DNA of 62,827 bases, filler included, from Nemertoderma westbladi (Eukaryota; Animalia; Xenacoelomorpha), in NCBI GenBank assembly GCA_032718475.1. It is 3 parts of 3 records of this genome, joined end to end, with 100 filler letters (N's around TTAATTAATTAA, not from the genome) between each part and the next. Parts side by side here need not be neighbours in the genome. Positions count along the whole stretch, not along the records: positions 1 to 26,199 come from JAUCBJ010002420.1; 2 more parts are not named here. One strand, written 5' to 3'. Of the stretch, positions 2,728-56,789 are shown one piece after another. The position numbers and the translations under genes are program-made. Positions within the stretch are counted from its first letter, which is position 1. Each line of letters starts with the position of its first letter. The notes beneath the pieces were generated by a model. The model did not search any database. It saw only the letters and a list, made by a program, of their open reading frames with translations, and had not been told where the DNA came from.

Positions 2728-5277
2728 ATGGCGAGTAAGTTGATCAGAAAGAGAAAGGCGGAGTCAGGAGGAAAGGAGATACAGGTGGATTTCACCGAGA
2801 GGCATCCGGAAGAGAAGACGAGAGGATACTACGAGAGGTTGGAAAGGGGTCACGCGGCGCGAGCGCTGCAGGATCACTTCAGGGAGATGCACGAACAGCG
2901 GCTGGTCGGGACCTACGGGACGCCGTCGCTGGACAACGCGATCTTCCAACACTTCCACTACGTGGTGAAAGGGGACGAGGCGAAGTTCGGGATTCCGAAG
3001 TACCCGAGGGAATCACCGAGGTAGGACTGGAAGAGATTCATAGAGTCCGTCAACAGAGGAGGATATATGATCCTAGACGACGAGGGAACCGTGGAAGACG
3101 AGGCGGGTTCGAGACGAGGAACGGCGGGGTCGGCCAGGACCATACTCCTACATTTGGCCGCGCCAAATGGGGACATCTTCTTATTCGACCTAGGGACGTA
3201 TGGGAAGAAGGACGGGCCGAAATTAAACCGGTTACCGAAAACGGTACAAGTCTTAGTAAGAGAGAAGTCGACGACGAAAGTGGGATCGGCGATTCGCGAG
3301 GATGCGGAGAGAATCATCAGTCCGGACGCCACCAACCTCCTGGATATGCAGAAGGTCTTTATGGCTATGATGGCACCGGATGGGTTCGGGGTAGTCGAAA
3401 ACACAGGCCAATGCGGGGCGGTGGCAATGGGCCAATTATTGGGGCTCGTATGCCACAAACCGATGGACTGGGGGAAGTTTAGGGAAGAATAAGGAGCAGA
3501 ACTAGCGAACTCGCTAAAGTGGGGAGCGAGACCGGGAAAGCAGGAGGTATATCAGTTCCGCAGGGGAGCGATAAAGGTATATCAGAAGCGATATATCCTG
3601 CAGGAGGACTGGATGATGATAAGTTTGCTTAACTTATTCATGACCGTGGTTATCGAGAGGGAACCAGGGGCATTTCTGTTATCGGGATCACCCCTAAGCT
3701 ACAGGAGAGCCTTTAAGACGGCCTTTGACGGTCTGGTAGACCACCCGGGGCTGAAGGGCGAGTCGGTGTACTACAACAGCCGGCATCTGGTAGACGGGGA
3801 GACAGATACACCGTATCAGAGATGGGAGCAGCTAGAGACGGATAGACGAGAAGCAAAGCGACTGGAAGAAGTCGCTAGACGGGAGAGGATAGAAGCAGAG
3901 GAGAGGGAAGAGGAGGCCAGGACACAGAGTTACGGCTTCGAGGAACAGGCAGGCCTAGACAAACTTCATTGGACTTCATCAGGGAGTTCGGGGGAGTCTC
4001 TAGGGCGAGAATTGGGATGGACGGTGGGATCGCCGAAACAGTCGACGTCGGGGTTGCAAACGATGCCCATACCAGCGGGCGCCGAGGGCGACCAACCGCC
4101 AAGGAAGTTAAGGGAGCTAGAGGGATGGAGAGCTACGGGGGAGAGCCAAGGCGGGAAGGGACATAGTGGATCCATCGGGATACTGGGATTGGAGACACTA
4201 CCAGAAGAGGAGGACGACGACGACGAGTTCGGAGAGATGCCGCCCATCGAGAGGATAGGCCACTCGGACACGGACTGGGTTGGCGGAAGGGTGGTGACGG
4301 CCAGTGGGGCGAGGGCCTTCTGGAACAGATCCGGCAAGCGGACCTGGGTGCACGAGGAGCCGGCGATGGATTTCGCGGGGAGCACCATCAGGTTGGGCGA
4401 GCAACCGGGGACGGCACCACGGATAGTATTCGGGGAGACGATGCCCGAGAGGGGCGGAGAGATCGACGTAGATAGAGAGACCAACGTAGAGAAGTTCGCC
4501 TACCAGCGACTCCACAGACCGCGGAGATCGCTTGGGACGAAAGACGAGGTGGGACGGGAGACATTGGTACTCGGCTGCGACTACTGTGGGAGACAGACCC
4601 ATCGGGAAAGCAGCTGCCTATACCGGTTCCAAAAGGGAACCTTTTGTCTCTACTGCAGAGAACCAAGCCACAGGATGAGGGCGTGTCCACGGTTGCATAA
4701 CCGATGTCCAAAGTGCCACTTTCGGGGACACTACGGACGCGAGTGCGACTGGATGAACGACGAGGAGAAGTTCACAAGATTCGAGGAGTGGGCCGACGTC
4801 GGGGCCATGACGCGCCAGCGCATGAAAGCCCAGGAGTTCAAGTGGGGTTTCTTCCTTATCAATCAGGAGACTCACATGGAAATCATAAAGCGGAGGCTAC
4901 CGTTTACCTACCAAGAGGTAGCAACGGCGGCGTCGTACGCTGGAGTGATGAACACGCAAAGGTATTTGGACAGGTGGACGCCAGAGAACCGAAGGGAGTT
5001 TAGGGATTTCTTGGCGGAGCACGTACCAAAGGCAATGAAAATGATCCTATGGGACGCCACCAGAGGGAGACAACCGGGCCACTCTGAGGGGCCACCGGCG
5101 AAGCGATATCGGGCACTAATAACACCAGCGCCCAAGGAGCCAACGACCGGGATCAGCAAGGAAGTGGCGGCGAAGGTCCGAAAGCAGAAAGCGGACGATG
5201 CCAGAGGAACGGTGATAACCAAGAAACGACCCAGGGAAGAGGACGCCAGGGGGAACTATCCCCAGAGGAACACATAG
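2728..5277 (+). pseudogene. Element 1 extra ORF (env position): DEDDy-like 3'-5' exonuclease domain plus three CCHC zinc knuckles, with two in-frame stops
   Basis: ORFs 2728-3024, 3067-3492 and 3613-5277 share one frame, broken only by TAG (3022) and TAA (3490). Motifs: ILDDEG (ExoI, 3076-3084), LPKTVQVLV...KVGSAIRED (ExoII), LLDMQ, QKRYILQED (ExoIII-like, 3592). CX2CX4HX4C occurs three times at 4576-4746. Confidence 0.75.
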
Positions 5278-7833: not shown

Positions 7834-10239
7834 CATATTCCATTATAGTTTTTAATTAGTTCAAGAGATTTGCTTTAATAAATGTGTTTTTAATTGTTCT
7901 AAATGTAATTAAGTTACAATGCATTCCATCACTCTATACTTCCAGTCTCATCATTCCTTGGCATTCTTGATATTGCCTATTTGATGGGAAACACGTTCGT
8001 GGGGCCATCGCGCAGGACGAGGCTCAGTTATCAGATACATATTAAAATTGATGCTCGTACAACACATGTAATAAAATTTAAGAAATTCCACCAAAAAATA
8101 ATTTATTTTACTTTAATTGCCTGGAAAAAAGTAAAATCAATGCAATACTATGGGTTACTTTTTTCTCTACAGAAAAAATAGTCATTTTTTCCCGATTTTA
8201 GGGTATATTCGAGCGAAAGAGTAACAATTTAAAAATAAAATTTCATAAAAATTTAAACCGTACTGTGTTTGGTTATCAACCTCGTACAGTTTGTAACTCC
8301 GAGCGCTACCTGCACACCAGCAGCACAGTATTAAAGGCCTGCACCACCACCCAGTTGAGTTACAGAAGTTGTTTGGTGGTCTAAAATTTGGTTGCCTAAA
8401 AACTAGGAGAACTTTAATGAATATTTTGTTTCTGTTTAGTTTCTATTGGAGCTTAGGATCCAGTGGATCTCATCTGGATCGCCCCGACAGACCACATCGA
8501 CATTGTCGGATATACCGTCCGTATTGTCTGACAGTCGGACGGGAGCAGGCTCTACCTGCAGAGTACGGGTTCCAGGTTGCCGTGGTTACTGGGGGTCTTA
8601 CGGTGGATTCGGTACAGTTGTGTCAGTACAACCCGGTTAGTTCGGCTAATTATATTTCAATAAAACGTATTTTATATTTCTTTCATTCTACTAGTAAGGT
8701 TATTGTTCGCGCTTTTAGACCTTTAGCAGTTTAACCCGCCAATTTTAGGTGTCTTCTAGTTTATAAATCGACTTTAGCCTATAAAACTGTTTAGTACACA
8801 TAAAGTAACATTAGCCGAAACCAGTCTATGCGCGACCATTCACCCACTGTTAAGGGAGACTGGATTCGGATGCTTTGATCTTATTGCGGTGCAGACCTAC
8901 CGTATTATTCGATTGATCGTTACTATATAATCTCTGACAAATATTATTTACTTTCGGGAAATATTAACAGTTACTTTAGGACGCGGCGCTCTAAGTATGT
9001 AAACAGAGTTATGACTTACACTAAACACAACGGGATGGCTAATGATTTTCGTTTATAGCGCATTCTTTAGGAAATGCTTTGTTATCTATCACACTCCTGC
9101 ACACTACCACACACTGCTGCACACTGATCTGCCGACCTTCACTAAATTTGATCATATATAAGGAGAATAGCATCTGACACATGTAGAGATTATGAAATAG
9201 CATTCAATTCACTGCAAAACCACTATAATGTAAGTCGCAGTTGCTACAGGTAACTGGTCCCTCTTACCTTCAGTATATCAAGAAGATTGGGGTTTTATGA
9301 TTATTTATCGATAATCTCCAAATATAACAACATATCAATCAACATATATAATAATTAATAACCGACAGTAAACAGAAGTAAAATAATGGTGCAGGTGCAA
9401 AGAACGTGACTGGAGTAGCAATTTGATAACAGTTATACGTTCCTATAATCAAGCCGTCTAATGTTTGGCTAAAGTCTGAAACTCAGAATAATTCCAAAGC
9501 CGATGTTCTGGGCTCAGGAAAAGGTAAACAAAGACCGTAATGCATTGCATGATTTCCCGTAGGCTTCTGTACAAGATAAAATGAAAATCGCTCTGATTGG
9601 TCGAGTGAGCTGAACAAAGAGAGTTAAGAAAGCTCCACATCGACATCAAATCAGCTGATAGATTTCGTCATATGAAACTACACTGTATTAAGAGTATTTT
9701 GGCGCATTGCGGCATAAAATGGCTTGTTATGTCCGCATAGTACACATACAGAAAAAATGGCTTTTTATGTCCGCTAAAACACCTACACAGTACTTTGCGG
9801 GAAAAAATGACTGGTTATATCCGCAAAAGCTTTTACACCGCTCCCAGAAAATGGGATTTAATTCTATAAAATATAAAAAATCACAGTTTCTAAAATATAA
9901 AAATACTCTAAACAGTTAGTCTTTCTTGCGCGGACGGCGTTTACGCAGTTTTTTGAGGCTAGCAAGAGTCCTTTTCTCTTTGGGGCAAGCCACTTTACTA
10001 GGAGGACTATAACTCCTGGGTGAAGGGTGCAATACAATTGCATCGGAAGGTTTAGGATTACGGTCGGTGTATCCACCGGTCGGGGTACCCGGTTGATCGA
10101 TATCAACCTCAGTGGAGCGAGGTCGAACGGCCTTTAGAGCGCGTTTCAGGACAGCAGCTCTTACTGGTCCCTGACGAGTCGTCTGAACAAGAGCGGTAGG
10201 TGGACCATGGGCAGTGAGAAACTTCCTCGGTTTAATGGT

Positions 10240-10540
10240 TATTGGGATCGGAAATAAATGAATACCAGCTGCATCAGTTTATTAATGGTCGACATACAGA
10301 ACAGCATATCAAACAATAATAAGAACCAACAGACCAACGAACACACCCACCACCTTACAGCACATCAGTACAGCAGTACAGTAGGTACCGGTAACGGTTA
10401 CTGTACCTACAGACCTAGAAGATAGGAAAGACTGAATACCGGAATACCAGAAGAGGACCGGTAGCTAAAAGACCAGTAGGTTGGATCTAACCACCACCAA
10501 GCCAGGGTCTACTAGAGCCCTAACAATACATAATCTAACA
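10240..10540 (-). repeat. Gypsy 3' LTR (301 bp)
   Basis: Direct repeat of 14822-15122, adjacent to the PPT. Confidence 0.96.
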
Positions 10541-10610
10541 TCTCCCCCAAGAACAATGTAGGAGACATTTGTAGTGAAAAAAAAAATCCAACCACCACCA
10601 ATAGGTCAGT

Positions 10611-13600
10611 TCATTGAACTCCGAATCTTGCTGGTTGCTTGTGAGTTCTCGAACTGCGCCTGGGAAGATCATCAGCGAACTGTACATGTTTTTGAGGCGT
10701 TATATCACGAAGAGAAGAGTCATCTGGGATGGAACGTAGATAACGACGATTTCTCCAATACACCCGACCATTGTCTAGTTCTATCCAGTAATCTCGTCTA
10801 GTACCACGGGAAAGGACGATACCAGATTTGTTCCATAGTTTGGAATGTGCACTCTGGATGCAAACTCGGGAACCAATAGGAATCGGGGTTAAGTCGTGAG
10901 CATGATCATTATAATATGATTCAGTTGCTGAAGACGTTGAAGGCCAAGGGATAGGGAATGAATCACCTGCCAGTGTGGACGAATGAGCTGGTATAGTGGA
11001 ACGGAGGGATCTACCGAACAACAGTTGAGCTGGAGACATACCATGTTCTTTAGGAGTATTTCTCCATTCCAGCAAACCACGAACAAAGCAAGTAGAGTTT
11101 AGATCTCCTTTGACATCTAACTTTTTTATCAATGATTTCATGGCCTTTACAGCCCCCTCTGCATGGCCATTAGACTGAGGATACTCAGGAGTAGAATACT
11201 CAGGGATGATATTCCATTCGGATAAGAAATCATGATAACGTGCTGAATTAAATTGTGTACCACCATCAGAACGAAGGCGTTTTGGAATACCGAAATCTTT
11301 GAACCATCCTCGAAGAGCTGAAATAACTTGAGAGCTGGAAGGATCGGCACGCCAAGAATGAACGCATGGCCACCCAGAATATCTATCGACATAAACCAGG
11401 TATGACCAGGTGCTGAAGTAGAAAAGATCAGCAGAGCAATCCTCCATTGGAAGACATGGATGAGGGTCGCTTTGGAGAGACTCTTTAGGTAAACTTGGTT
11501 GATAAAGTTGACACTGGGGACAAGAATTGACTATGTTTGTAATATCGCTATTGATACCAGGCCAGAATACAGTTTGCCTAGCTCTCCTCTTAGAACGTTC
11601 AATGCCCTGATGAGCATCATGAAGGTGCTTCAGGACATTCTTGCGGAGGGAAGATGGAATTACAATCCGGGAACCTAATAAAAGAAGATTATCTTCACAA
11701 GATAACTGATGTCGCACATTCCAGAATGGGCGTATGTGCACAGAACATTGTGTGGATGTTGAGGGAAATCCAGAAATAACAGCATCCACCAAAGCCATGT
11801 AAGAAATATCATCCTTTGCAGATGATCGGATAGACTCAATATATGAATCCTTGAGATGACTTGGAGCATCAGAGACAACAATTGAGGTAGACACGTGACG
11901 AATGACTGCGGAAACATGGTCATTGACATCTGTATCACAAAGAATATCCTCTGGAGTAGGATCCGAAACAGGGGCACGGGAAAGTGCGTCTGTAATCGAA
12001 TCGATATCGGAAGTGATATCGGAAGTGATATCGGAAGTGATATCAGAAGTGATATCAGAAGTGATATCGGAAATGATATCGGAAGTGATATCAGAAGTGA
12101 TATCGGAAGTGATATCGGAAATGATATCGGAAGTGATATCAGAAATGATATCGGAAGTGATATCAGAAGTGATATCAGAAGTGATATCGGAAGTGATATC
12201 AGAAGTGATATCGGAAGTGATATCGGAAGTGATATCGGAAATGATATCGGAAGTGATATCAGAAGTGATATCGGAAGTGATATCGGAAGTGATATCGGAA
12301 ATGATATCGGAAGTGATATCAGAAGTGATATCGGAAGTGATATCGGAAGTGATATCAGAAGTGATATCGGAAGTGATATCGGAAGTGATATCGGAAATGA
12401 TATCGGAAGTGATATCGGAAGTGATATCAGAAGTGATATCGGAAGTGATATCGGAAGTGATATCGGAAGGATGGACCCAATTAGTTGGTTCGTTATCCAG
12501 AACTGGACAAATAATACCTTGTTCAACCATTTTCTCTAAGCGAGCTTTAGCCCAGTCTCTAATGGCTAAAGGAAGTTGCCTGGCTGTATGAATAGCATAT
12601 GGTTGGGCATCATCTTTTAATGAAATGGTCATGGGTGGGCCATTCATTGGACGAAGTTTGTCATCTTGGTCAAAAACATCAGAATAAGCCTTTATGAGTT
12701 TCTGCTTAACAATATCCCATTCTGAAGGCGAAGGTTCATCAGAAAGATGGAAGTCAACCTTGAATGATGTTGTTGGAATTGAGTTTTTAATACCAATAGG
12801 TGACATATTAGAAGAATTAGAAGAAGCAACAGACTGAATTTCTGCCACTGGTTCTGGATATGAACTTGAAATAATTCCTAGGTTTTGACAAGTATACCAT
12901 GCCAAAAGAATTCCATTGACTTCTTCACAAATGCAGATAAGCTCATCAGTTGAATATTCACCATAGGAAATTGTAGTGTGGAGGAGACCAATGCATGAAA
13001 GAAGACTACCATTAGCAGCAGAAAGATCATCATGGTCTGGTGGAAGTAAATTTTCTTTGTCAATAGAAAGGGCCTGAAGAAAATCTAAGCCGGCAACAGT
13101 GGCCTCAGCACCAGTATCTGGAGTTGCTTTGAGAGAACCGAATAAATGTCCTGTTGCGATATGACAGAAGTTCAGAAATACTTTCGGAGCTTGTCGATTA
13201 TGGCTTCCAACCAAATTGAGGGTGATGCGGCTAATGGGTTTTGTCTTAGGTTTTGAAGATGAATTCGAATTATTTTGTTTAGACCGACAAACATTGGCAA
13301 AGTGGCCTTCCTTGCCACAATAAGAACAATCTTTGTTCCTTGCTGGACTGTCAGCGCGTTTATGGTCTGTTTTACCACAACCATAACAAACTATAGGGCC
13401 AGTAGTTGAAGAATTGTTTCTGGAATTGGATTTAGAAGAATTGTTGCGCCTGGAATTATAAGGTTTTTTGTTGTGAAAACGAGATTGTCGAGAAGCTTGG
13501 TTGATTGAAGGGTTTTTTAAATCCTGAACTCCAGCTTGCGCTGATTCCTCAGACCTACAAAGATTTACAGCATCTTCAAGCGAAGGAAATGGAGTCAATG

Positions 13601-14291
13601 CAAGAAGTTTAGATCTGGTGTCCTCGCAAGAAATACCAGACATAATTCGAGTAGTCAACCGCCGATCGAAACAATGACGACATAGATCAGCATCTCGAGC
13701 AAGATCTTTAATAGCAACCAGGTAGCTATCAAAATTTTCACTTTGACGTTGTTTCCTATTATCAAACTGAACACAATCAAGGGCTATATTCCGTTTACCA
13801 CGAAAATAACTTTGAATACAATCTATTAACACCTGAACTGTTAAAGGATTATCATGTGTGTCAGGAGGAATGTCAATAACTTGTTCCAGTGTAGAGCGCA
13901 TACCTATAGAAAGGTAACTCCTGAAAATACAGATTTGCCTATCCCTAGCCATTCTATCCATCTGAAATGCAGAATAATAATCCGCCCAAACCGACTTCCA
14001 AGTTTCAAATTTTGCTAAACTGAAATCCGGTTCTAAAGCAATTGGTGCTTTAATTTGAAGATTACGAGGGGTTGAGTCAGCCTGATGAACTACAGGTTGA
14101 TGTGGTTGACCAAGTAATTGTTGAAATTGATGGGCATTTTGGGCTTGGGATTGTGCTAAGGAATCAGCCAAATCGCGTTGTGATTTAACTAAAGCATGTA
14201 GAAGAGCTGAGGTGGGATCAGGATTACCACGACCAGCCAACTGTTCTCTTAAAACCTCCAGTTCGGTTTCGAGTTCAGCTTTAGTAGGCAT
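10611..14291 (-). CDS. Gag-protease-(SDIT)n-integrase polyprotein, 1226 aa, lacking RT and RNase H
   Basis: Gag (FDNRKQRQSENFDSYL), knuckles CYGCGKTDH and CSYCGKEGHFANVC, protease DTGA, pre-RT PTNWVHP. Then the repeat, the post-RNase H motif DALSRAP, HDAHQG...FWPGI...CPQC, and integrase ADLF / LRSDGGTQF / PQSNGHAE. No YxDD motif. Confidence 0.92.
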   Translation of the reverse strand: MPTKAELETELEVLREQLAGRGNPDPTSALLHALVKSQRDLADSLAQSQAQNAHQFQQLLGQPHQPVVHQADSTPRNLQIKAPIALEPDFSLAKFETWKSVWADYYSAFQMDRMARDRQICIFRSYLSIGMRSTLEQVIDIPPDTHDNPLTVQVLIDCIQSYFRGKRNIALDCVQFDNRKQRQSENFDSYLVAIKDLARDADLCRHCFDRRLTTRIMSGISCEDTRSKLLALTPFPSLEDAVNLCRSEESAQAGVQDLKNPSINQASRQSRFHNKKPYNSRRNNSSKSNSRNNSSTTGPIVCYGCGKTDHKRADSPARNKDCSYCGKEGHFANVCRSKQNNSNSSSKPKTKPISRITLNLVGSHNRQAPKVFLNFCHIATGHLFGSLKATPDTGAEATVAGLDFLQALSIDKENLLPPDHDDLSAANGSLLSCIGLLHTTISYGEYSTDELICICEEVNGILLAWYTCQNLGIISSSYPEPVAEIQSVASSNSSNMSPIGIKNSIPTTSFKVDFHLSDEPSPSEWDIVKQKLIKAYSDVFDQDDKLRPMNGPPMTISLKDDAQPYAIHTARQLPLAIRDWAKARLEKMVEQGIICPVLDNEPTNWVHPSDITSDITSDITSDITSDITSDIISDITSDITSDITSDITSDITSDITSDITSDIISDITSDITSDITSDITSDIISDITSDITSDITSDITSDITSDITSDITSDIISDITSDIISDITSDITSDITSDIISDITSDITSDITSDITSDITSDIDSITDALSRAPVSDPTPEDILCDTDVNDHVSAVIRHVSTSIVVSDAPSHLKDSYIESIRSSAKDDISYMALVDAVISGFPSTSTQCSVHIRPFWNVRHQLSCEDNLLLLGSRIVIPSSLRKNVLKHLHDAHQGIERSKRRARQTVFWPGINSDITNIVNSCPQCQLYQPSLPKESLQSDPHPCLPMEDCSADLFYFSTWSYLVYVDRYSGWPCVHSWRADPSSSQVISALRGWFKDFGIPKRLRSDGGTQFNSARYHDFLSEWNIIPEYSTPEYPQSNGHAEGAVKAMKSLIKKLDVKGDLNSTCFVRGLLEWRNTPKEHGMSPAQLLFGRSLRSTIPAHSSTLAGDSFPIPWPSTSSATESYYNDHAHDLTPIPIGSRVCIQSAHSKLWNKSGIVLSRGTRRDYWIELDNGRVYWRNRRYLRSIPDDSSLRDITPQKHVQFADDLPRRSSRTHKQPARFGVQ
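12002..12468 (-). repeat. 12-bp minisatellite, about 39 copies of TCYGATATCAYT, translated as SDIT/SDII
   Basis: Direct reading. Each unit contains the GATATC palindrome, and only two positions vary. Confidence 0.97.
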
Positions 14292-14821
14292 ATCTGACTG
14301 TTGAATAGTAGAGAAATTTCAGGAAATTAAATATCCGAAAAAATTTGCAAAATCCGAAAAGAAAAAATTTTGCAAAAATGTGCAAAACTTTTGCACGCAA
14401 ATCAGCCAAAATCTGTAGTTATTGAATACTGGCAGACTGGAATACCGCCTGACTGCTGAATGTGAATAGGTACCGGTAGTTTCTAATTAGGCTAGCGGGC
14501 GTGGCTGCCTACCCCTCACGGCCCCCGGACAGTGCAAGGTCCTCAGCGCCGATGTACCGTCGTCGCTGTGTTTTTCGCCAACGATGTAGCTACACAACGA
14601 CAACGATAACCGCGAGCCACTCCACTGTCCGTCCCAAGGGCTTAGTTTAGAAGAGTACTGGAGTAGGTACACCACCGGAAGTATAGGTAGGTAGCTAGGC
14701 CTAGATCAGAATCAGTAGAGGCGACCGGTAGAATAATATTGAATTATCTGACCTGCTGAATGCGCTGGAATGTCCACCATTTGAATAGGGTTGTAGGAAC
14801 ATCAAGTACATCACTGCGCCA

Positions 14822-15122
14822 TATTGGGATCGGAAATAAATGAATACCAGCTGCATCAGTTTATTAATGGTCGACATACAGAACAGCATATCAAACAATA
14901 ATAAGAACCAACAGACCAACGAACACACCCACCACCTTACAGCACATCAGTACAGCAGTACAGTAGGTACCGGTAACGGTTACTGTACCTACAGACCTAG
15001 AAGATAGGAAAGACTGAATACCGGAATACCAGAAGAGGACCGGTAGCTAAAAGACCAGTAGGTTGGATCTAACCACCACCAAGCCAGGGTCTACTAGAGC
15101 CCTAACAATACATAATCTAACA
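14822..15122 (-). repeat. Gypsy 5' LTR (301 bp)
   Basis: Direct repeat of 10240-10540, followed by the PBS. Confidence 0.96.
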
Positions 15123-18100
15123 ATGGTTCTTTCCAACTCGCGTTCTCGGCTCGATATTCGTAGGGCCGTCTATGCACTTCCTGTAACTCTGGATAAGAGT
15201 TGATGAACAAGTCGCCATATTCCGGATCTTGACGAATGAAGTTGATCAAGTTATAGGAATTAAGATCGTTAGGATTAATGTTCCTGAGATATTTACGAAC
15301 AAATTTGGTTGAAATACATTCGCCAACACGCTTCATTAGTTCGTAACTCGGTGTGCGTGATTTTTGTTCAACAGACGCGAATAGGTAAGGATGGAATGCA
15401 TAAACTCCTTCGTAGGCGCATCCAGGGTAATAGCGATGGCGTGACTCACAATGTAAATCCGCGTTCGCTTCCCAAGCTCGGATGTAGCGTAGGGTAATCA
15501 TTTCATCTACGCTTTCCAGATCGCGGTTAAAAGGGCAATCAAAACTGGCATGTCCTTTAAGTTGACAATGATGGCATTGAGTCATAAATTGGGGGCAGAC
15601 TGCGAAAATGTGCAAGTTATTGAGTCTGCAATACGCACAATAGATCTCCATCGCCGGTTGTTCATGGAAATAGGAGCAGGGTACGTCTGAGTCCATGGGT
15701 GTAAGATGGTCTCTCGATGCGCATAATCGGCAACGTTTTCGAGAAACATAGTTGGCATGCCGATAATCGTATGCGGTGAGACACTGTGGACCTTGATACC
15801 ATTCCAAGACGTAGTCGTTGTCGCTGCTCCGGGGCGCGGTAGGTTGAATCGCCTCAGATTCTAAGCATATTGGTTCGTCTTCCAATTGCATAGCTGAGGT
15901 AGGTGTGACTGTTTCCTCAAGCGAACCCACTGTCTGAACTTCCACGATAGAATAGCCCGTGGGAATTCGAGGTCTTTGTATAACAGAGGAATGTAAGTTC
16001 TGTATACAAACATCCTTGAAAATGGCGAATCCAGCGCTGTCTAACTTCTCAGTAGCTGAGTCTCTTAGGCTGAGCTTGGTCAGAGCGCGGTCCTTGAACT
16101 GACTATCAACGTTACGGAACGGAGTCAGAAAGCGCCTGAAACATTCGAAGCGGATGAATTTATTGTGTTCATCTAGCTTGGTGAGTTTGGTTCCAAGTAT
16201 TAAGGGATGGGCGCGTATAGTATGACTGCACACATCGGCTAGCCAATACGGCAAGTGCGGCGTTTTCAAAGATCGTGTATATAGCTAAGGAGGGACGAAG
16301 GGGAACACTCATGAAGCTATACACGACACCAGGTGCAGTCAATGGTCCATCGAAGTATAATCGAGAATAATGATCTCCATATACTTGTTGATAGTTGATA
16401 GGATTTCCGACCTTGAAATTCCATCCGTATTCTTGAAAGGCAAGATGTCCGATGGAGGTTCGTTGTACTTTAGTAATGCTGCTGGGTGTATTGGCATACA
16501 TAGTTCGGAAGAAACCTCGGCCTTCTGCCCAGGGAGCAATCAGCTGAGTATCTACGAAAGGATATGGGATATTCTCCATGTTCTGAAAGTCGTTTTGGAG
16601 ATCTCCATAAACAGCTGAGCCGATTTTAAGGATTCTTTCGTTAAACAACATCTCGAGCACGGGCTGGGGTAACATCGATCCATCGATACCCATGGCCGGT
16701 TTCGCTCGGTGTCAGTGACGTAACGCTGCGCGAGTTCGAATTGTCCATGTCGGAGTTTCTTTTGTATCTTAGTGAGAGTCTCAAAGGAATAATCGATCAC
16801 GTCGGAACACACTCGAGTAAACACATGGGTAGAACCAGCTAGTCCTCGTATGTGTATCATGCGCGTAGTTCCCAGTTCTCCGACCGGAACGCTACCTTCG
16901 TTATTGTAAGTGACAACTCCATACATTTCGATAACGTTAAGAGTTTCGTTCCACTCTTTAGTGGCGTTCTCTAGGGTCATCCCCACCGGATGCCACAAGT
17001 TGGCGCATTCGCTAGCGCTAGGGAGATCCCTATACTTCAGATACTGTGTAGTATACGTCTCCACATCTCCATATCTTTGTATTCTCTCTTTTTCGAATAA
17101 TACGCCGAGATTCCAATGGACTAATCGAGTTTTAATAAATCCATCGAGATTATACGGAGGTGTTGTATCCTTCTCTATTCTAGAAACATTGTATAGTTTT
17201 CTGAATGAATTTACTTTCACTAACTGATCCAGATGTTTCTGCAATTGTTCGAGTTCGACAAGGTCGAGAGGATTTATTAGCGGTAGAAACCTTAGATTAT
17301 GCGTCGGGTCTTCAGGTTTTACCATATAATATTGAGTTAGATTGACGTAATAAGGGTGGTCTTTGATCCCATAAAACGAGTTCGGTAAAGGTCTAGCGCG
17401 TATGTTGACCTTGTGTACCATACGACGGACAAGATCCGCTTGATTGTCCGGAGGTTCAACGAGTATACCGTCGACACGAGCGGCCTCGATTGGAGGACGC
17501 TGTAACATAGGAGCGTCAGGGATAAGATCTCGGGATCTTAGGTTGATATCAACCGGTTGGGGTTGTACCGTCGCGAAGAGTTTGTCTCCGAAATGGGGAA
17601 CCATCGAGGGATGAATGATGGTTTTGGAATAGAGATCAGTCATAAGGATTTGAGCTTCGGGTTGGGCTAAAGCTGCTTCTTCTCTCTCATCCATTTCGAT
17701 GTGTTTCTCCTCGAGCTGATTTTCCTCCGCTTGTCGTTGTAAGCGTTCATCTAAAAACTCTTGTAGAGAATAGGTTCATCCAAGTTCGATGTCTTCCTCC
17801 GAGGTTTTGGATTTCTCGATCGAACTGTGGCAAGGCAAACTCCTTCACCGATTGGACTTGTTGCTGCAATTTACGTTTCTCTAAACAATCGTACGTTCCT
17901 TTTCCGATCTTCTGCCGAATAGCATCTAATGCGTTTCTTATAACGCGCTCCTCGACTTCGGTGACGGGTTGTATCGGGGTTAAACCGGGACAATTGTAAG
18001 GGTTGAACGGCGATATTAAATGTCCGCATCCCAATCCGGCTAGGTAGGATGGGCGAATATCTAGAGAGCCCACTACCGGAGTGCCACTGATTAATTGTTT

Positions 18101-18463
18101 GGGTAACACTAAATCTTTGAACAGTGAGTATAGTTCGGGAGGATCCGTGATACTATTAGGATCAAGAGTTTGAGGTCTCACTGGGGAATGAGGAGGTCTG
18201 TCCGAGTATTCCGGAACTCTGATCATGGGTTTATTTAAAGATCGTTTGAGGCGAGCGATCGTAGGTGATACATCAAACAAATTTCGCTCGAAACTCCCGT
18301 AAGTATAGCGAGTAAAACTGTGTTTAGCGCAACGTCTCCGCGGATGTTTATGTCTTTCCGTTTGTTGGTTGGGTCTAGGGCATTCATCACAATAATACCA
18401 AAGACGCACGTCCTGTAGAGGAAACGCGGGTGATCGTTCTCCAGTTTTACAATATTCCTCCAT
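15123..18463 (-). pseudogene. Element 2 extra ORF: N-terminal Cys/His region, DEDDy-like exonuclease domain and three zinc knuckles; frameshifted and cut by the Gypsy insertion (tail resumes at about 10234-9916)
   Basis: Overlapping fragments 18463-17747, 17694-16552, 16693-16169 and 16269-15123. Motifs TYNNEGS, LPQPVLEML...LKIGSAVYGD, FVDTQ, AIYTIFEN, then CRLC..H..C, CAYC..H..C and CHHCQLKGHASFDC. Homologous to 2728-5277. Confidence 0.7.
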
Positions 18464-18469
18464 CTGTTC

Positions 18470-21400
18470 GAAGCCAAAGCGTCGTCTCCAGAAATGTGTA
18501 GTACAGACAGATCTATCACGGGTTTAAATAACTTCGATTTACTCGTCCGGGTTTTAGGTTTGACTTTCTCCGTTCCCTTGGCTTGTCTAATCTCAGCCGT
18601 GGTGAGATGAGGGGGCCATTCATCCTCTTCTTTACTTAGGAAGTCGGGTCCACCTAACCAGTCTGGAGTGTCTACCAGTTCTTGAGGAGTTGCTCCTCTG
18701 GAGGCGATGTCAGCTGGATTAATCGTCCCAGGGCAATGTCTCCATTGATCTATCTTCGTGCGACTAAGTATAATGGCTACTCTGTTGGTAACGAAGACGC
18801 TGAACTGACAGACTTCATTGGCTATATACTCCAACACGAGTAAAGCATCGGTCCAATAGACAGTTTTCTCCAGAGGATAGTCGATCTGTTCTGTTACATT
18901 CCGGCCGATGGCTGTAGCGTATAGAGCCGCTTTTAACTCCGCTCAAGGAACTTTCAGCTTGTTGTTTATCAAGGCCTTAGAGGTAACCAAGGCGACCTTA
19001 ATTCCATCTGGAGTTTCAACCCTCAAGTAGGCTACTATACCTATTCCCATGTTGCTGGCGTCTCCAAACACATGGAGTTGATAGGAATACGTGGGGAGAA
19101 TGTGACCAAAATATGAACGGGAAATAATAAAGTTCTCGATGGAAGGTAGAGAATCTTCCCATTTCATCCACTTCTTTAGCAGTTCTCCCTTAAGTGGATC
19201 GTCCCATGAGTGGTTTTCAAGCCACATTTGTTGTACTAAACTCTGAGCAACCAATATAATGGGGCTAATAAATCCCAATGGATCGAAATAAGTGCTCAGG
19301 ATACTTAGACCAATCCGTTTGGTGCAAACTGGATTATCTCGCTGTTTTAGTTGGAAAAACAGGATATCTCTCTCCGTGTCCCATTTCAAACCAAGCGTCT
19401 TAGTTTCTGGAAGATCGTCCTTGATAAGGTCTAGATCTTTAGTTCCTCGGTCTTCTACCAGGATCGATTCCAGAAATTCCTGGGAGTTACTTGTGAATTT
19501 AGTTAATCTAAATCCACCTCTTTTCAAGCACTCTACCGTTCCCTTGGCGACATCAATGGCTTCTTCCACCGATGGGAGGGACTTTAAATTGTCGTCCATG
19601 TATATATCCCTTTTGATGTTGTCGATAACCGCTTTAGAGAAGGCGTCCCGATTGTCTTCAGCAGTGGTATGCACTACTGAGCAGGCGTTTGAGGGGCTCG
19701 AGATGATCCCAAAAGCCTGTATGGTCATCCAGTACTCCACTGGTTTTTGGTTGAGGTCTCGTTCAGGCCACCACAGAAATCGTAGTCTGTCGCGATCCCT
19801 ATCCAGCGCTTTAACTTGTAAGAACATGCCTTCTATATCCGAAGCAAAAGCAATCGAATATTGTCGTAATCTTAAGAGTATTCCCAACAAGGATTGGAGT
19901 AAGTTGGGTCCCGGCAACAACTCGGAGTTAAGGGATTGGCCCATGTAGAGGGCGGAGCTGTCAAATACTACCCGGACTTCGTTGGGTTTACCGGGTTTGG
20001 GAACGTAATGGTGTGTTAAATAGTATGTTCTCTCGGTTATGGGTGTTTCTTCTGGTACTCGCTCCGCATATCCCTTGTCAATGAATTTCTTCAGCTGGGT
20101 CCTGTACATCTCCTTAGCTGAAGCATTTGCCGTAAGGCGTCGATGTAGTTGCGCGATTCTCTTCTCCGCCAAAGGTCGGTTATTTATAAAATTGGGTTCT
20201 CTCCGTCGGAAAGGCAGACCAATCTCATACCTACCTTGATCTTTAAGAAAACGTGTAGTCGTTTCCTGTATCTGCTTGGCTCTTTCCTCTTCTACCGATA
20301 GGGCCTTATCGTAGGAATTGGGCTCTACAGCCTCTTGAGTGAAGAATCGTACGGCGTGTTCATCGCGAGTCTTCGCGTTTTAACAATCTATCACTTCATT
20401 CAGTTCGTCGTTGTAATCGACTTGTCCCGCTGGATGGATGAGGTGACACAGGTTCACTTGGTTTTGCCAAGTTTCATTTTCCGTAAGGAGGTCGATGGTA
20501 TTCTCCTCGTCGAATGGTTGATGAATATCGTCATTATCTGAGGAGTATGGCGTTCCCTCAGGTGTGTCGTCTCCCTTACTGATTTCCTCTTCCCATTCAC
20601 TCACCTGGTGGACTTGATCTTTAGGTAGCCTTTCCATGAGTGTCCTACGGGAAGGTCCAGTAAAGTACCAACCTACTCTAGTTCTTCCCGCATAGGTTTG
20701 CAGTGGTTGCGGTTGAGCAGGCCGTTTCTCTAATGTCTCAAGCGCCTCATGCACATTTTGGCCGATGAGTATTTGTACCCCTGGATAGTCGGTGTTGAAT
20801 CTAGGTATCTCATGCTGCTGGGTGAAATTGTCTTCATCCCAGTTATAAGGTTCCACTTGGCTGGTAGCGAAGTTCTTTATCACTACCATCTTCACTGACC
20901 TTATACTGTGTTCTCCTAGTTCATCCTGGGGGGTGGATAACGCGCCTACATAGTAGTCTGTAGCTACTGTAGATTTCCAAACCTGCATAATTCCTGAAAG
21001 GTTCAACTTAGTTCGGAACTTGGGTTGTCCAGCAAAGATATCTTCGGCTAGTTCTTTGTCGATGAATGTTCCTGTGCTGCCGGAGTCAAGGAGGGCGTTC
21101 ACTATATAGCTCCTTTTTAACCCGTGGACTCTCAACTGCACTACGGGAAATTCTCGGATTCCTACGTTGGAAGTTGGCGCTTTCCAAGATGGTTGTCGGT
21201 CAGGAATAGTTAAGGGGAGCTCACTATCAGTTTCAGTCTCATACGTAAGTGCTCGATACAGTGCAGTGTTTATTAGATAACAGGATTCGTTTTCGTCGGA
21301 GAATTCATCTGTGTAGAATCCTTCCATCTCCGAACTGTGGTCAGTGTCGTTCACATCACTGAATTGGACATGTAGTTTGGACTCACTTACCTGACTCGGG

Positions 21401-24400
21401 TTGTTTCTTTCGAATTCGGTGTGCAACAAGATATGATGTTTCGCGCCGCACTTCGCACACCTTGCGTCGGAGTAACAGGTTCGCCATTGGTGTCCTTGTC
21501 TGAGACAATTATAACACAATTGCTTATCCCACATGACTACGCGTCTATCTTTTAGGGATTTCTTTAAGAATTCATCACACACACTTAAACGGTGGGGCCC
21601 GTCACACAACGCACATTTTGGTTTGATGTTACTTACTTTACCTTGGGTAGTGTTGTGCACACTTGTTCTCTCCTCGGGCTTTCTTCCCTGAATTCTCTTA
21701 GGAGACGTGGGAGGAGTTTTTGTTGTCTGTTCTCTCCTGTCACTGGTTCGAGACTTAAATTTACTTACATCCTTTGGTGTTTTGTTGACATAATAAGATC
21801 TTTCGGTGTCTTTTCCGTTGCTCTCCTCTTGAGAGGTTTGGCTTTCGCCGTCGTCTGTATAACACACTGGTGTTACCTTTCTCCTAGAAACGGGTTTTTC
21901 ACTTACCTTATTTTCCGGTGTCTTCTCTCGGGACTGCTTTAGGAGCTGTAATCTTACCTATCCATTTAAGAATGACATGAGATCAGCCATGGTAGGTTCT
22001 CTTTGTTGCTGGTCCATCATATAGAGCACTTTCTTGTCCCAGCGAGTACCTACTCCACCCTTGGGCAAAGTAGAGGCTACGGCTCCAATAACCTTGGAAC
22101 TCTGATATTCATGAGACTTACCTAACCAATCTAGTTGTCTACAGATCTCCTGAATCTCATCGGAAAACTCTATAATCCCGATGCTAAGGAAATTTCGGGG
22201 TGCTACCAATTTTGCATACAAATACCTAGCTATGTTTGTCCTATTACCATACCTGATGTTTAGTGTTTCCCAAACTTGTCTTAATCCATCTGGATGTCCA
22301 ATAAACTTTAACGCCATTAACTTGGGAGGTCCTTCCAAACACTCGATGAGGAATCTAAGTTTCTCTCTGTTCGATAGTACAGAGTTCTGTATGTTATCTT
22401 TGTAATATTCATTAAAAGGTAACCATTTCATCTCATCTCCATTGAACTTGACGATCTCTCCCACTTTTACCGCTTGACGGGCTTCAGTTCTGGCCATTTG
22501 ACGCATAAAACTTTTTTGGGCCATCGTGTTATTTAATATCGAGTTATCGGTATATAAATTTCTCGGATCATGATCAGGTGTATATGGAATATCATTGTCA
22601 ACAGGTTTATAATTACCCTTAATAGGGTTTACTATAGGAGTTTCTACTTCACTAGCAGTATAGATGTGTGTAGGCTCCACACCTTGCGCATGAAATACTT
22701 CAGACCTAACAGGTTGACACATTGTTACATGGGGTGGTGGTATACCCCTTTGTGTATTTACCAATTTATCGCGTTCTAACGTGATACTCTGCTGCACTTC
22801 TTGCAACTCTAACCTACTTTCCCTTACTGTTCCCTTGAACTGTTGAACAGTCTCCTGCATCTGCCCGAGCAGGAGATCCATCCCCCGCCATCCCTCATCC
22901 ACCCACTCGACCGCCGAAGCAGGAGCCGCCAACATAGTAGCGGGTAGACGAGGGACGACGGGCGATAAATCTTTAATGTCTCGCTCGGCGTCCAGGACAT
23001 GAATTGTCTCAGGGACTGTTTTACTGGGCACAGGTAATTTAGTACTGTGCAAAGGGAATTTAGAGGTAGGTTCTGGGAGTACAGGTGTCTCTATCACCGA
23101 AGGGGTGGCTTCGAGAACAGGCCTAATTATTTCAGGCTCATCTACTATAGTAGGGAGTCTTTCTACTACAATAATTTGATCTGTGGGTTCTGTACCACCT
23201 AAGTCTGTGCTAGCTAGTTGCCTTCTCACAGCTGGGGGCAAATTAGGCAATTTCTGACGGTGGGGCGTTCTTCTACGCCTGCTGGAACGAGATCTATTTC
23301 CTCCGCCTTCGGGATCTGTTGTATCGCCTTCATCAGATGATGTAAACCCCTGTCTTTTTTATCTATGTAGTCTTGCTTCTCTTGAAGATTTTCCAACTCT
23401 CGTTGGGTGGTCTCTTCAGACGCCCTCCGTTCTATTTCAGCCACTGATACCTTTCTTTCCGCTTCTGCTGCTGCCACTGCCGCCTTTCTTTCCACTTCGG
23501 CCGCTTTTATTTCCGCTTCGGCCGCTTTTCTTTCCGCTTCTGCCTCTGCCGCTGCCGCTTTTCTTTCCACTTCGGCCGCTTTCCTTCCCGCTTCTGCCGC
23601 TGCCACTGCCGCTTTTCTTTCCACTTCGGCCGCTTTTCTTTCCGCTTCTGCCGCTGCCGCTGCTGCTGTCTTTCTGTCTTCTATATGTTTTTTCTTCACT
23701 TGTTCTTCCTGAACTCTAGCGATGCGGATTCTTTCATCAAATTTAGCTCGATCCGCTTCTAACCTTTCCGCATCTAACAAGTCTAGCACAAACTTGGCTC
23801 CCTCACTCTTAGGGTGAAGTCCAGCTACCTTCTCCTTAACTCTTTGTCACCTATAAATCGTTGATAGTCCAACAGATAGATGTCAATGGCGTCCTTCTTT
23901 GGAGGTTTCTCTGATGTCGCTTCGCTTTCAACTTGAGAAAAGGTAGCATCTGTTGATTCTCCGTGGGTTGAGCGTTCAGTTAGCTGAATTTTCCATTGGG
24001 TTGTTCCTTGGACTTTAAGACTCACCCGTTGGAACCAAGTCTTTACGGCAACTTGCAACGACGTGTCTTGGCTTCTCTTCGAGGCTTCCTCAAAGGCCGA
24101 TAGGATTAGTCTGATTCTTAGGATACGTTCTCGAACTTGATAAAGCAGCTCTCCCTGCTCTTGAGGTCCTTGGGGTTGTTGAAACAGTTGTTCCTCTAAT
24201 CGCTCCAAAGAGCTGAAGAATCTCTGTACATATCCTGCTGCCGACCTCTTCCACACAGCTGGATCTCTAGTGTCCCTTTCCACTCCCATCCTATATAAGT
24301 CCTCCCAGGTAGCTTCCGATAAATTAAACGGGAGTCCGGGTCCGGGGAAGTTCCATTGCGTCTCGACAATAGACTTCATTTCCTCCATTGTGTATCCCGC

Positions 24401-24853
24401 ATAACTATCCTTGGTCGATTGCTTACTTCTCGCCCAATCGATTTGTTGTTCTTCAACAGCAATCAATACTCTAGTGAGAACAGCTTCAGGAAGAACAAGA
24501 AGTGGATCCGAATAAACCGCCTTTGCCATCTCTGCTCCGATCTCGGGCAGCAACTCTACAGTATCTGTACTACTGGAGCTATCGGACCGCGGAGAAATAA
24601 GTTCTCGGCTCGGGTGTTGGTGGTGCTGCTGTTTAACAGCTGCCTCCTGGTCCCGCTTGACTTGAGCCCGCGTGCCTATAATAGACCTACGGTGCTTGAC
24701 TAGCCTAGGGTCTGATACTACAACTGGGAGAATAACCTTTCTTACAGTAGGAGGGGATTTGAACTTTGGTCTCAAACGTTCCGCACTCCTATCTAAATCA
24801 CAGACTGTTGTTTCTAAGAGACTATCTGACAGATTTTGCTTTGTGTCAGCCAT
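18470..24853 (-). pseudogene. Element 2 gag-pol (Gag, three Cys/His knuckles, aspartic protease, RT, RNase H); stops and frameshifts; no integrase
   Basis: KFNGDEMKWLPF...EKLRFL (Pao Gag), CALC/CYNC/CAKC knuckles, ALLDSGS, RVVFDSSA...SLNSELLPGPNL, DIEGMFLQV, YMDD, LHVFGDAS, WRHCPGTINPADIASRG. In-frame stops at 21958, 20380 and 18943; frameshifts near 23810 and 23240. Confidence 0.9.
23440..23670 (-). repeat. Imperfect in-frame repeat encoding AAE(A/V)ERK coiled-coil/charged helix in the element 2 Gag N-terminal region
   Basis: Repeated GCCGCTTTTCTTTCC[AG]CTTC units on the + strand, translated in ORF 23226-23789. Confidence 0.85.
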
Positions 24854-24988
24854 GTTTGTTTGTACAGTTGAATGCCTACTACTATAACTATAGTTAAAGC
24901 AAGTCTAGTAATTCAGTATCAACTATAAGCCTAGTAAGTAATTACCGATACCGTCACTCAGTGCAGCGTGATATATATACAATATATT

Positions 24989-32985: not shown

Positions 32986-33078
32986 GTAAATAATTAACAT
33001 CAGATACCCCAGTCATAAAGTCCTAAAGTCATTTTTTACACTAAATTTAATGCAATAATCACTATTTTAAATCATTTT

Positions 33079-33890
33079 AACTAAAATTAATCACTTTTGA
33101 CTAAAATTAATCACTTATAACTAAAATTAATCACTTATAACTAAAATTAATCACTTATAACTAAAATTAATCACTTATAACTAAAATTAATCACTTATAA
33201 CTAAAATTAATCACTTATAACTAAAATTAATCACTTATAACTAAAATTAATCACTTATAACTAAAATTATTCACTTATAACTAAAATTATTCACTTATAA
33301 CTAAAATTAATCACTTATAAATAAAATTAATCACTTATAATAAAATTATTCACTTATAACTAAAATTAATCACTTATAACTAAAATTAATCACTTATAAC
33401 TAAAATTAATCACTTATAACTAAAATTAATCACTTATAACTAAAATTAATCACTTATATCTAAAATTAATCACTTATAACTAAACTTAATCACTTATAAC
33501 TAAAATTAATCACTTATAACTAAAATTAATCACTTATAACTAAAATTATTCACTTATAACTAAAATTAATCACTTATAAATAAAATTAATCACTTATAAT
33601 AAAATTATTCACTTATAACTAAAATTAATCACTTATAACTAAAATTAATCACTTATAACTAAAATTAATCACTTATAACTAAAATTAATCACTTATAACT
33701 AAAATTAATCACTTATATCTAAAATTAATCACTTATAACTAAACTTAATCACTTATAACTAAAATTAATCACTTATAACTAAAATTAATCACTTATAACT
33801 AAAATTAATCACTTATAACTAAAATTAATCACATATAACTAAAATTAATCACTTATAACTAAAATTAATCACTTATAACTATAATTAATT
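33079..33890. repeat. 20-bp AT-rich minisatellite (ACTAAAATTAATCACTTATA), about 40 copies, in the NOMO intron
   Basis: Direct reading. Confidence 0.97.
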
Positions 33891-38535: not shown

Positions 38536-40064
38536 GTTGCCCAGATAACGTGCGAAAATTATTCGCAATGAAGGGAAAATTCATCGAGGGTAGTGTGGTT
38601 CCCCCATTGGGTGGCGTTGTGGTCACTGTGACTCCTTCCCGATTGGACGCGGGCGACTCGGTTGCTATGGTGACCACGGGTCCCGACGGGGTCTTCCGGG
38701 TGGGCCCCTTCTACGGCAACACCAAGTACAACGTGACCGCGACCAAAGATAACTACGTGATAACGTCTGTTCTAGAAGGTTCGGGAGCGGAGAACACAAC
38801 CTGGAGGTTCGAGGCGGTTAAAATGTCGTCGATACGGGTGAGAGTGGTGGAGCAGGGAGTGAAGGGGAGTGATGGAGTGAAGGGGAGTGATGGAGTGAAG
38901 GGGAGTGATGGAGTGGAGGGGAGTGATGGAGTGAAGGGGGGTGATGGAGTGAAGGGGAGTGATGGAGTAAACGAGACTGGGGTGATTGACAGCATTCCGG
39001 GTAGTTTAATATCGCTTAGCGGCCGCGGGGGTTACCGTAGTAACAGTTTCGTCGGCACCGACGGCGTCGTGGTCTTCCCGTCTCTGGTCCCCGGTACCTA
39101 CTTCCTCATGGCGCTACTCAAGGAGTTCGCCTTCGAGCCCTCCAGTTTGACCATCGAACTGCTCCAGGGAGAGACCCGCACGGTGACGGTTACCGGGCAA
39201 CGGGTCGCCTACAGCTGCTACGGGAACACGGTGTCGCTGAACGGGCAGCCGGAGGGGGGCGTGGTGGTCGGGGCCGAGGGTTTGGGGGTGGTTGGAGGGG
39301 GCCAAGGGGGCCCCGACGGGGGGCAGGGGGGCCCCGACGGGGGGCGCTGCACCGAACAAGAACAGGCGCCTAGCGACCCCGTCACCGGGGAGTTCCGCAT
39401 CCGAGGTCTGCGACCCGGTTGTATCTACAGGGTGGGACTCGCCAACCAGTCCAACCCCACCGTGGAGCGCTCCCTCACCAATCCGGTAGACGTTCCCATG
39501 ACCACCGAGGATGCGCTTGGGTTGCGTTTCGTCGTGATGCGACGGATTCCAACAACCAGCGTCACCGTCTACATCGACACCAAGCAGGAATTCCTATCGA
39601 GTCTGAAACTCGTTATTTACCGAAGCGACAACGATTTAGAGGCTATTCACTCGGTCTCCGTTAAAGTCCCATTCGTTCATCTCCCTCCGCTTAGCAATTC
39701 CCAGTCGCATTCCTATATAGTCCGAATGGATTCGAGTCTATCCAAACAGCAGTACTCCTACCGTACCGGGAGTCGGGAGTTCTCCGCCGAGGGCGGACAC
39801 CGACATCTGACGATGGAGTTCTCGCCGAGCCCGAGGGAGTCCGGCGTCGTTACCGAACTGTCGCAGGCGCCGTCGTTGCTCGTGTCCGCGTTGTTCGCGG
39901 GGATTGTAGGCGCGTTGTATCTGCTGCGATATCAACCCAACGCGGTGGGCAGGGCGCGGGAACTCTTGGTGGGTTACTACGGGCGGGTCACGGTGCCCCA
40001 CCCCGGGGCCAAGCCGGAGGATAGCGCCCAGTCGAGGGCTCGGGTTAGGACTAGGAAGGTTTAA
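38536..40064 (+). CDS. NOMO1: NOMO exon 2 (Ig-like repeats, TM helix, basic cytosolic tail); spliced product about 1236 aa
   Basis: Acceptor TTTCTTTTACAG at 38535 joins in frame (G|GT TGC CCA = GCP). Motifs FIEGSVVPPLGGV, SLSG..GYRSN, L.PG.YF...LKEFAFEPS, RVAYSCYG..VSLNGQPE, GEFRIRGLRPGC. Confidence 0.93.
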
Positions 40065-43076: not shown

Positions 43077-43795
43077 CTCAGAGTGTTAATAATAAATAAA
43101 GTTTCGACATAATTATTGGAGATTATTGCCAGTCATATTCCAATAATATCCGAGATTACTTTCTTAGATTATTAGATAGTTAATAGTTTTAATTAGGACT
43201 GAGGCGAGGGTTGACCACTAAACTAAAACTTAGCCAACTAAAAAATCAATTAAATTAAAATATATTAAATTAAAACAACACCATTCTGCCAATCTGACTT
43301 CAAGATAGATAGAAAACTGAGGACAAGACTAGGAACAGAGCAACCAGCAGCAAATTTCAGGGGAAAAAATAGTATTTTAATACAGTAATAGCAATATGCC
43401 TTTATTACAGCAGCTATATCAGTATTATTGTTAATGTTGTATTGCTGTATTGTTGCCGCTTGCAGGCTAATAATTTACTGCAACTGCAGTGCAGCCTGCA
43501 GGACTGATTTGATGTACTTAGTACTGGCATATGGCGATAGCAGAGGAGGCTGCCAACAGCTACAATCCAGCAATCTATACAGAGTAGACTGACTTTGAAT
43601 AACTCTGTCGTAACTAACCCAGTAACTGCTGAACTGGGTAACATTACCAGATCACCGACCAGCTAAATTCAACATAGAGCCTTGCAGCCAGGCCAGAGGT
43701 TTATAAAATAGATACCGGTAGACTGGTAGATATCATATCATATAGAGGGGTTGATAAATTGAGTCGTTGAGTTGAGAGTAGAGCTGTAGAGCGTC

Positions 43796-44709: not shown

Positions 44710-44824
44710 GTGAGTTACTTTACTAGAATATTAATAAAATCAAATATTACGCGAAACCCCGAAATATAATTAATGTTGGGTTCAGTCGATTACTCCCAAA
44801 AATACTTAAAGTGTAACCTGGGCC

Positions 44825-56615: not shown

Positions 56616-56789
56616 TTCATCCCCCATAAACAATTATTATTCCCCCAAAAAATAATTATTCATCCCCCAAAAACAATTATTCATCCCCCAAAAACAATTA
56701 TTCTACCCCCAAAAACAATTATTGATTCCCCAAAAATAATTACTTGTCAACCAAAAAATATTATTCCAGCACCAAATATTTTATATTAT

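Follow-up and report, generated by a model that had tools for sequence, protein, structure and literature searches.

The window analysed here is a stretch of 62,827 nt from the Nemertoderma westbladi assembly GCA_032718475.1. Within the part of it that derives from JAUCBJ010002420.1 lies a Ty3/Gypsy element of 4,883 bp on the minus strand (10240-15122), with no N inside it. The element is bounded by paired LTRs and a short TSD, with a primer-binding site (PBS) after the 5' LTR and a polypurine tract (PPT) before the 3' LTR (Table 1). All of these signals had been named in an earlier, sequence-only reading, and all are borne out: the LTRs agree at 301/301 positions, the TSD is ATGGT, the PBS is of the TGG type and the PPT is a run of eight purines. 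One detail needed correction, which is that the LTRs have the termini TG...TA instead of TG...CA. Zero differences put the upper bound on LTR divergence at <1% (95%), and the arrival of the element is likely to have been recent.

The PBS is presumably of the tRNA-Ser or tRNA-Leu type, and there is no tRNA gene within the window. The element likely belongs to the Mag lineage, to judge in part from the names of relatives, some of which, on the integrase side, are called K02A2.6-like. A PBS matching tRNA-Leu or tRNA-Ser is given as a feature of that lineage (PMC3286476). The ORF that the insertion interrupts belongs to a high-copy repeat at the host site and had no match in an Atlas search. A segment of the element's own leader (14472-14743) is also common to a very high-copy repeat.

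Table 1. Features of the element and its insertion site (positions along the window)
Feature	Position	Strand	Remarks
TSD, left copy	10235..10239	.	5 bp, ATGGT
3' LTR	10240..10540	-	301 bp; same sequence as 5' LTR; ends TG...TA
Polypurine tract	10541..10548	-	8 purines, adjoining 3' LTR
Gag-PR-(RT stub)-repeat-IN single frame	10611..14291	-	1,226 aa, stop-free
Integrase HHCC + catalytic core	11178..11660	-	aa 878-1038; D-D-35-E spacing kept
RNase H end retained (SIT-DALSRAP)	11970..11999	-	native origin of SIT tail inferred
Array, 39 x 12 bp (SDIT/SDII)	12000..12467	-	palindromic 6-bp core; 2/3 frames open per strand
RT N-terminal stub, ending WVHP	12468..12690	-	start approximate, from Ty3/Gypsy RT layout
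Protease active-site motif DTG	13110..13118	-	aa 392-394
Two Gag zinc knuckles	13287..13388	-	aa 302-335; first without last zinc ligand
5' leader	14292..14811	-	
Primer-binding site	14812..14821	-	TGG-type, adjoining 5' LTR
5' LTR	14822..15122	-	301 bp
TSD, right copy	15123..15127	.	
Host-site high-copy repeat's ORF, interrupted	15123..16284	-	element sits ~25 codons before ORF end

The long open frame runs without a stop through its 1,226 residues, just as first described, and its remnants keep the order Gag-PR-RT-RH-IN with a Gypsy-type integrase last. What has gone is the middle. WVHP (aa 605-608) leads into 39 units of 12 bp, which give way through a 9-nt tail to DALSR at aa 768. Pfam finds no RT or RNase H family in the frame (E<=0.1), the YxDD motif is absent from it, and the intact RT and RNase H expected of an autonomous Ty3/Gypsy element are missing. 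The identical LTRs, the TSD, the PBS, the PPT and the lack of any Pfam RT match support the idea that the element is young, has lost its RT and keeps its cis signals intact.

The protease DTG is preserved, as are HHCC and D-D-35-E in the integrase, and Pfam recognizes both the HHCC and the core domain of the latter. However, Gag is not fully intact. Its first zinc knuckle lacks the last ligand at residue 315, a site where the deep contigs of three public runs (X1-X3, introduced below) differ from the window, and the Pfam match to a CCHC knuckle is weak (E 0.002, under its cut-off). Two or more knuckles are present in 69 of the 81 long relatives. The damaged knuckle argues against strong selection on the protein of this copy.

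The count of about 39 SDIT/SDII units in frame has been confirmed. Twenty-one are the main unit, 11 carry a synonymous change, six encode SDII and one is a terminal variant, and 39/39 keep the frame. Tandem Repeats Finder (TRF) returns 38.9 copies with 93% matches, and 39 of the 40 matches to the unit pattern in the window fall inside the array (1.5 expected). The change in the 11-unit variant is synonymous in the element's frame and creates a stop in another; it sits at a CpG and is compatible with plain mutation bias. Tests for higher-order structure among the units gave no significant result (P 0.08-0.37). The predicted RNA fold of the array consists of unit-to-unit hairpins (z -14.5), which follow from the palindromic 6-bp core and are not read as function.

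Where might such a repeat come from? Allowing one mismatch, the unit is found nowhere else in the element and at three chance-level sites in the window. Viral contigs yielded 0 matches to a repeat donor. In a HMMER search with the stub plus the array, the only retroelement among the best 150 matches was P0249, which matched the stub, not the repeat. An adapter origin, considered against adapter motifs, was rejected in view of the periodicity of the units and the variants among them. The unit may have had its seed in the native RNase H end, where S-D precedes the SIT tail; the tail itself is similar to the H-x-I-P found ahead of DALSR in 54 of the 120 relatives listed. The sequence-only reading regarded the repeat polypeptide as de novo, and this is doubtful as to origin. 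The array holds three unit variants and the LTRs no difference, so the insertion was probably preceded by the repeat DNA. Growth from a single unit after insertion is unlikely, and the repeat would instead have been inherited or captured.

Comparison with relatives defines what was replaced. An integrase-side search gave 786 matches among 7,990 scored candidates, of which 120 are listed (41-52% identity). These 120 are Gag-Pol proteins or pieces of them, most with RT and RNase H before the integrase. The gap could be measured in 106 of them (14 were left out for missing one breakpoint side). From the residue after WxHP to DALSR it has a median of 374 residues (339-384), where the element has 159 repeat residues. 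In the intact relative P0002, Pfam finds every expected domain including RT and RNase H. RVT_1 begins just after WxHP, and the span between the breakpoints covers RVT_1 and both RNase H models. Therefore, all catalytic RT motifs are gone from the element. The proposed description of the swap as nearly domain-precise is too loose. Some 70 N-terminal residues of RT are retained ahead of the array, and DALSR, the last motif of RNase H, is retained behind it (limits approximate), so the swap lies inside the domains and not at their borders.

In-frame loss of RT is apparently not confined to this element. Three of the 120 listed relatives, the candidate proteins P0052, P0114 and P0119 from public assemblies, likewise have one frame from Gag(-PR) to integrase without RT. 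P0119 also lacks RNase H, as the element does, and has a Pfam Asp_protease_2 match under the cut-off. Unlike the element, none of the three has a tandem repeat.

A further question is whether an intact sibling exists. Six public runs were available, all as contigs, and three contain half or more of the sequence words. Four runs (X1-X4) were compared over 12432-16500. X1 and X2 represent one sample, possibly the source sample, whereas X3 is a second sample from a second study; in X4 nothing covers 12432-14471, a range that includes the array bin, and this gap is not counted as evidence. One X3 contig (record 13, 1,879 nt) matches 12468-12787 with two differences and then continues for 1,559 nt unlike the window. 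The divergence starts exactly at the array junction base, 12468. These 1,559 nt would accommodate the roughly 1,125 nt of RT-RNase H with 434 nt to spare, and the contig therefore probably comes from an RT-bearing intact sibling, its RT being deduced from length and point of divergence. An X2 contig (record 7) ends at exactly the same base. Logan contigs derive from a 31-mer graph simplified with Minia3, according to the Logan preprint (10.1101/2024.07.30.605881), so this end suggests a fork between two continuations. The Gag-side junction is bridged by no contig among those listed, beyond which there are 10,457 further pieces.

The sequence-only reading had put forward the search for an RT-containing partner as a check. 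X3 record 13 is a probable partner; none appeared among the database proteins searched. The best integrase-side match there is 52% identical, a query with the RT stub matched 0 of 55 candidates, and a metagenome search for the sibling gave eight loci that match around the zinc knuckle only.

Depth in the same contigs bears on copy number. X1, X2 and X3 all show array-like depth. Relative to one diverged copy, Gag is 16 times as deep in X1, 38 times in X2 and 12 times in X3 (X1 and X2 disagree, though they are one sample), so a single array locus would give <=0.08 array equivalents per Gag copy. The values obtained, with unitig stacking modelled on the first bin, are 0.26 in X1, 0.25 in X2 and 0.07 in X3. 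Such a depth figure is not a copy number, and free minisatellite loci would inflate it. Still, these values and the contig end in X2 hint that the array form is real and perhaps present in several copies in the X1/X2 sample. At a leader site (14677) the window allele accounts for a depth of 337/650 in X1, 1,200/2,605 in X2 and 0/779 in X3. No second insertion was seen in the contigs compared (X1-X4, 12432-16500).

The copy also differs from the bulk of its family. It departs from deep contigs at 5/1,629, 6/1,499 and 8/1,657 nt (0.3-0.5%), whereas its LTRs differ from each other at 0/301. Had the differences arisen by drift in place, their occurrence beside 0/301 would have P 0.06-0.16. Moreover, at 14904 and 15047 both LTRs carry the same two alleles, and these are not the ones seen in the deepest contigs of X1-X4. 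The shared alleles and the distance from the deep contigs suggest that the RNA template of this copy was probably already on a side branch, distinct from the family majority.

The reading we prefer, with a probability of about 0.5, is that the element belongs to a non-autonomous sub-lineage copied by the RT of near-identical intact siblings, that the swap took place in a parent copy, and that the repeat is filler. About 375 codons of RT-RNase H would have been replaced in frame by the 39 x 12-bp repeat, likely in that parent. The initial event might have been a template switch by RT or the repair of a break, which exchanged the RT-RNase H core for repeat DNA already carrying unit variants. Deletions with insertions are reported as known RT products (PMC3187697). 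The RNA of the element could then be packaged and reverse-transcribed in sibling particles, since its LTRs, PBS and PPT are kept. For Ty1, defective elements are described as moving as efficiently as competent ones (PMC3945221). Mobility in the array-bearing form would thus be plausible. If the frame is translated, the protease may free Gag, PR, a stub-plus-repeat peptide and integrase, because the sequences round both processing sites, placed by the Ty3 layout, remain. Presumably, as in Ty3 processing, integrase would be freed whatever the spacer. The repeat itself would be filler from which whole units are gained or lost at each copying round without shifting the frame. Several points count against this preferred reading. 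No second insertion was seen, no listed contig bridges the Gag-side junction, array-like depth might stem from free minisatellite loci, X1 and X2 may be the source sample, and the first zinc knuckle is damaged. In addition, direct repeats are said to be deleted often during retroviral reverse transcription (PMC3187697), and an array of 39 units should therefore shrink. Erosion of the array would go in whole units, keeping the frame.

What if the swap happened only after insertion? In this scenario, a double-strand break or gene conversion in an intact young copy removed about 1.1 kb, an existing minisatellite patched the gap, the open frame is luck and the element is a dead end. Since the array is open in two of three phases and must meet the downstream frame (one in three), the chance of an open frame through it is 2/9, and the case was drawn from a very large scan. 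The 2-bp microhomology at the Gag-side junction and the short duplicated word at the other resemble repair junctions. Two of the four classified coding differences are non-synonymous, and in X3 the 0.07 array equivalents multiplied by about 12 copies amount to about one locus, which fits a single donor array. However, simplification of the X2 graph apparently left a fork standing at precisely this junction, while many single-base variants of the copy were removed, and array depth in X1/X2 is 3-4 times the expectation for one copy among at least 12; both points are indirect. A one-off accident is a real possibility, although we consider it somewhat improbable.

A bolder version of the preferred reading is rather unlikely. 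It would have a multi-copy sub-lineage now actively spreading, in which the minisatellite stands in for the RT-RNase H core as an elastic spacer and selection maintains the open frame, read-through to integrase being of benefit to the element's own RNA. This would be an invertebrate, repeat-built counterpart of mouse IAP 1delta1, would have grown to between a quarter and half of the family in one sample but be rare in another, and would carry the minisatellite to new sites.

The role for selection can also be taken separately, building on the preferred reading: an open frame might be maintained because read-through to integrase aids the RNA in cis, as in IAP 1delta1, or because it shields the RNA from decay. 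The 1,226 stop-free residues, the intact PR, HHCC and D-D-35-E motifs, the 39/39 units in frame and the 11-unit variant that is silent here and a stop in another frame are all compatible with this, and the IAP 1delta1 fusion is reported to act in cis (PMC6466679). Against it, decay would not be expected in so young an element, the first zinc knuckle is damaged, Ty1 is described as having no cis preference (PMC3945221), and the synonymous variant, at a CpG, is compatible with mutation bias. We regard selection on the frame as quite improbable. Least likely of all is an assembly artefact that put satellite sequence inside an otherwise intact element. In its favour, neither junction is bridged by a listed contig and the X3 sibling contig crosses the junction without the array. 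Against it, X2 record 7 stops precisely at the point of divergence of X3 record 13, X1-X3 all show array-like depth, both junctions are clean and in frame, and the element contains no N.

The significance of the element depends on its copy number. As a single locus it would be a neat yet ordinary broken transposon. If there are several copies, nature would have set up an experiment on whether an open frame benefits defective LTR elements, a gain reported for IAP (PMC6466679) and not for Ty1 (PMC3945221). The copies would also show directly how many repeats are gained or lost in each round of reverse transcription, each insertion fixing one array length, and would offer a route for the spread of minisatellites and low-complexity peptides.

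Among known systems, the element would work most like mouse IAP 1delta1, though it is no member of that family. In the published description, IAP 1delta1 has a 1.9-kb deletion that fuses gag to pol; it depends on proteins from its siblings, and the fusion gives help in cis (PMC6466679). The two share an internal gag-pol loss, one open fusion frame and, for IAP 1delta1 as reported, a non-autonomous life. They differ in that IAP 1delta1 is a class II ERV with a plain deletion that also takes part of gag (PMC6466679), whereas the element keeps Gag and PR and has its gap filled by a 12-bp repeat. Tandem repeats between Gypsy-type LTRs, as here, are described in non-autonomous LTR elements of Culex quinquefasciatus and in Mag-lineage elements. 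However, the Culex elements are non-coding and have no known master, and the Mag-lineage repeats are in the 5' UTR (PMC3286476), whereas here the repeat lies within an open Gag-Pol frame and a near-identical sibling is probable. Plant TR-GAG and similar non-autonomous LTR elements keep Gag/PR without RT, and mobilisation in trans has been proposed for them, but they lack integrase or have only decayed pol pieces, and the account available describes no in-frame repeat filler for them (PMC13570524). Searches of the open PMC and bioRxiv literature turned up no description of an in-frame minisatellite replacing RT-RNase H. The anatomy is real and unusual.

The long terminal repeats (LTRs) of the Ty3/Gypsy element, which carries a 12-bp repeat array in place of RT-RNase H, have TG...TA ends (see table). 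Record 6 of sequencing run X1 spans a TA-type LTR end with 0 differences between contig and window, and record 18 of run X4 contains the whole LTR (14822-15122) with 3 differences, none of which falls at the TG...TA end. Because the two contigs agree there, the termini look like a trait of the element's family.

The X4 contig (2,281 nt) has another aspect. Its LTR is complete and both flanks are unlike the window stretch with which it was compared (12432-16500). It may represent a solo LTR, or else an element copy of which it holds the 3' end.

Within the element, segment 14472-14743 of the 5' leader also occurs in a very high-copy repeat, with a summed depth of ~1e5 in runs X1-X3 (contig depth, not copy number). 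This suggests that the element's family captured repeat DNA earlier. The repeat into which the element inserted (15123-18523) gave a weak zinc-knuckle as its sole domain match and 0 matches in Atlas. It weakly resembles an ORF at 3493-5277 (E 4e-4).

Features of the window
Feature	Position	Remarks
LTR termini of Ty3/Gypsy element	10240-10243 and 14822-14825	TG...TA instead of TG...CA
Very high-copy repeat, several ORFs	15123-18523	insertion target of Ty3/Gypsy element; ORFs on minus strand
Bel/Pao-type element, stops present	18235-24904	Pfam Peptidase_A17, DUF1759, weak Asp protease
21-bp coding repeat	23452-23674	inside ORF 23226-23846, Bel/Pao-type region
20-bp x 41 array	33070-33889	between two long plus-strand ORFs
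18-bp x 6 repeat	38856-38968	in frame, second of two ORFs flanking 20-bp array
Tandem duplication, near-perfect	54764-58432	2,025-bp period
Long, intron-poor host ORFs	41589-43085, 43790-47574, 60000-62045	

The ORF in the Bel/Pao-type region is the window's second example of a tandem repeat within a retroelement-region ORF. The two ORFs around the 20-bp array appear to be pieces of a single NOMO-like gene. The 2,025-bp-period duplication includes 21-bp and ~130-bp repeats. The three long host ORFs, which we take to resemble glycerate kinase, splicing factor SF3A3 and alpha-N-acetylglucosaminidase, are intron-poor, pointing to an intron-poor animal genome.

Loss of RT has parallels among the 120 listed integrase-side relatives of the element. 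Three database proteins (P0052, P0114 and P0119) lack RT and, in frames free of repeats, fuse Gag(-PR) to integrase as a single reading frame.
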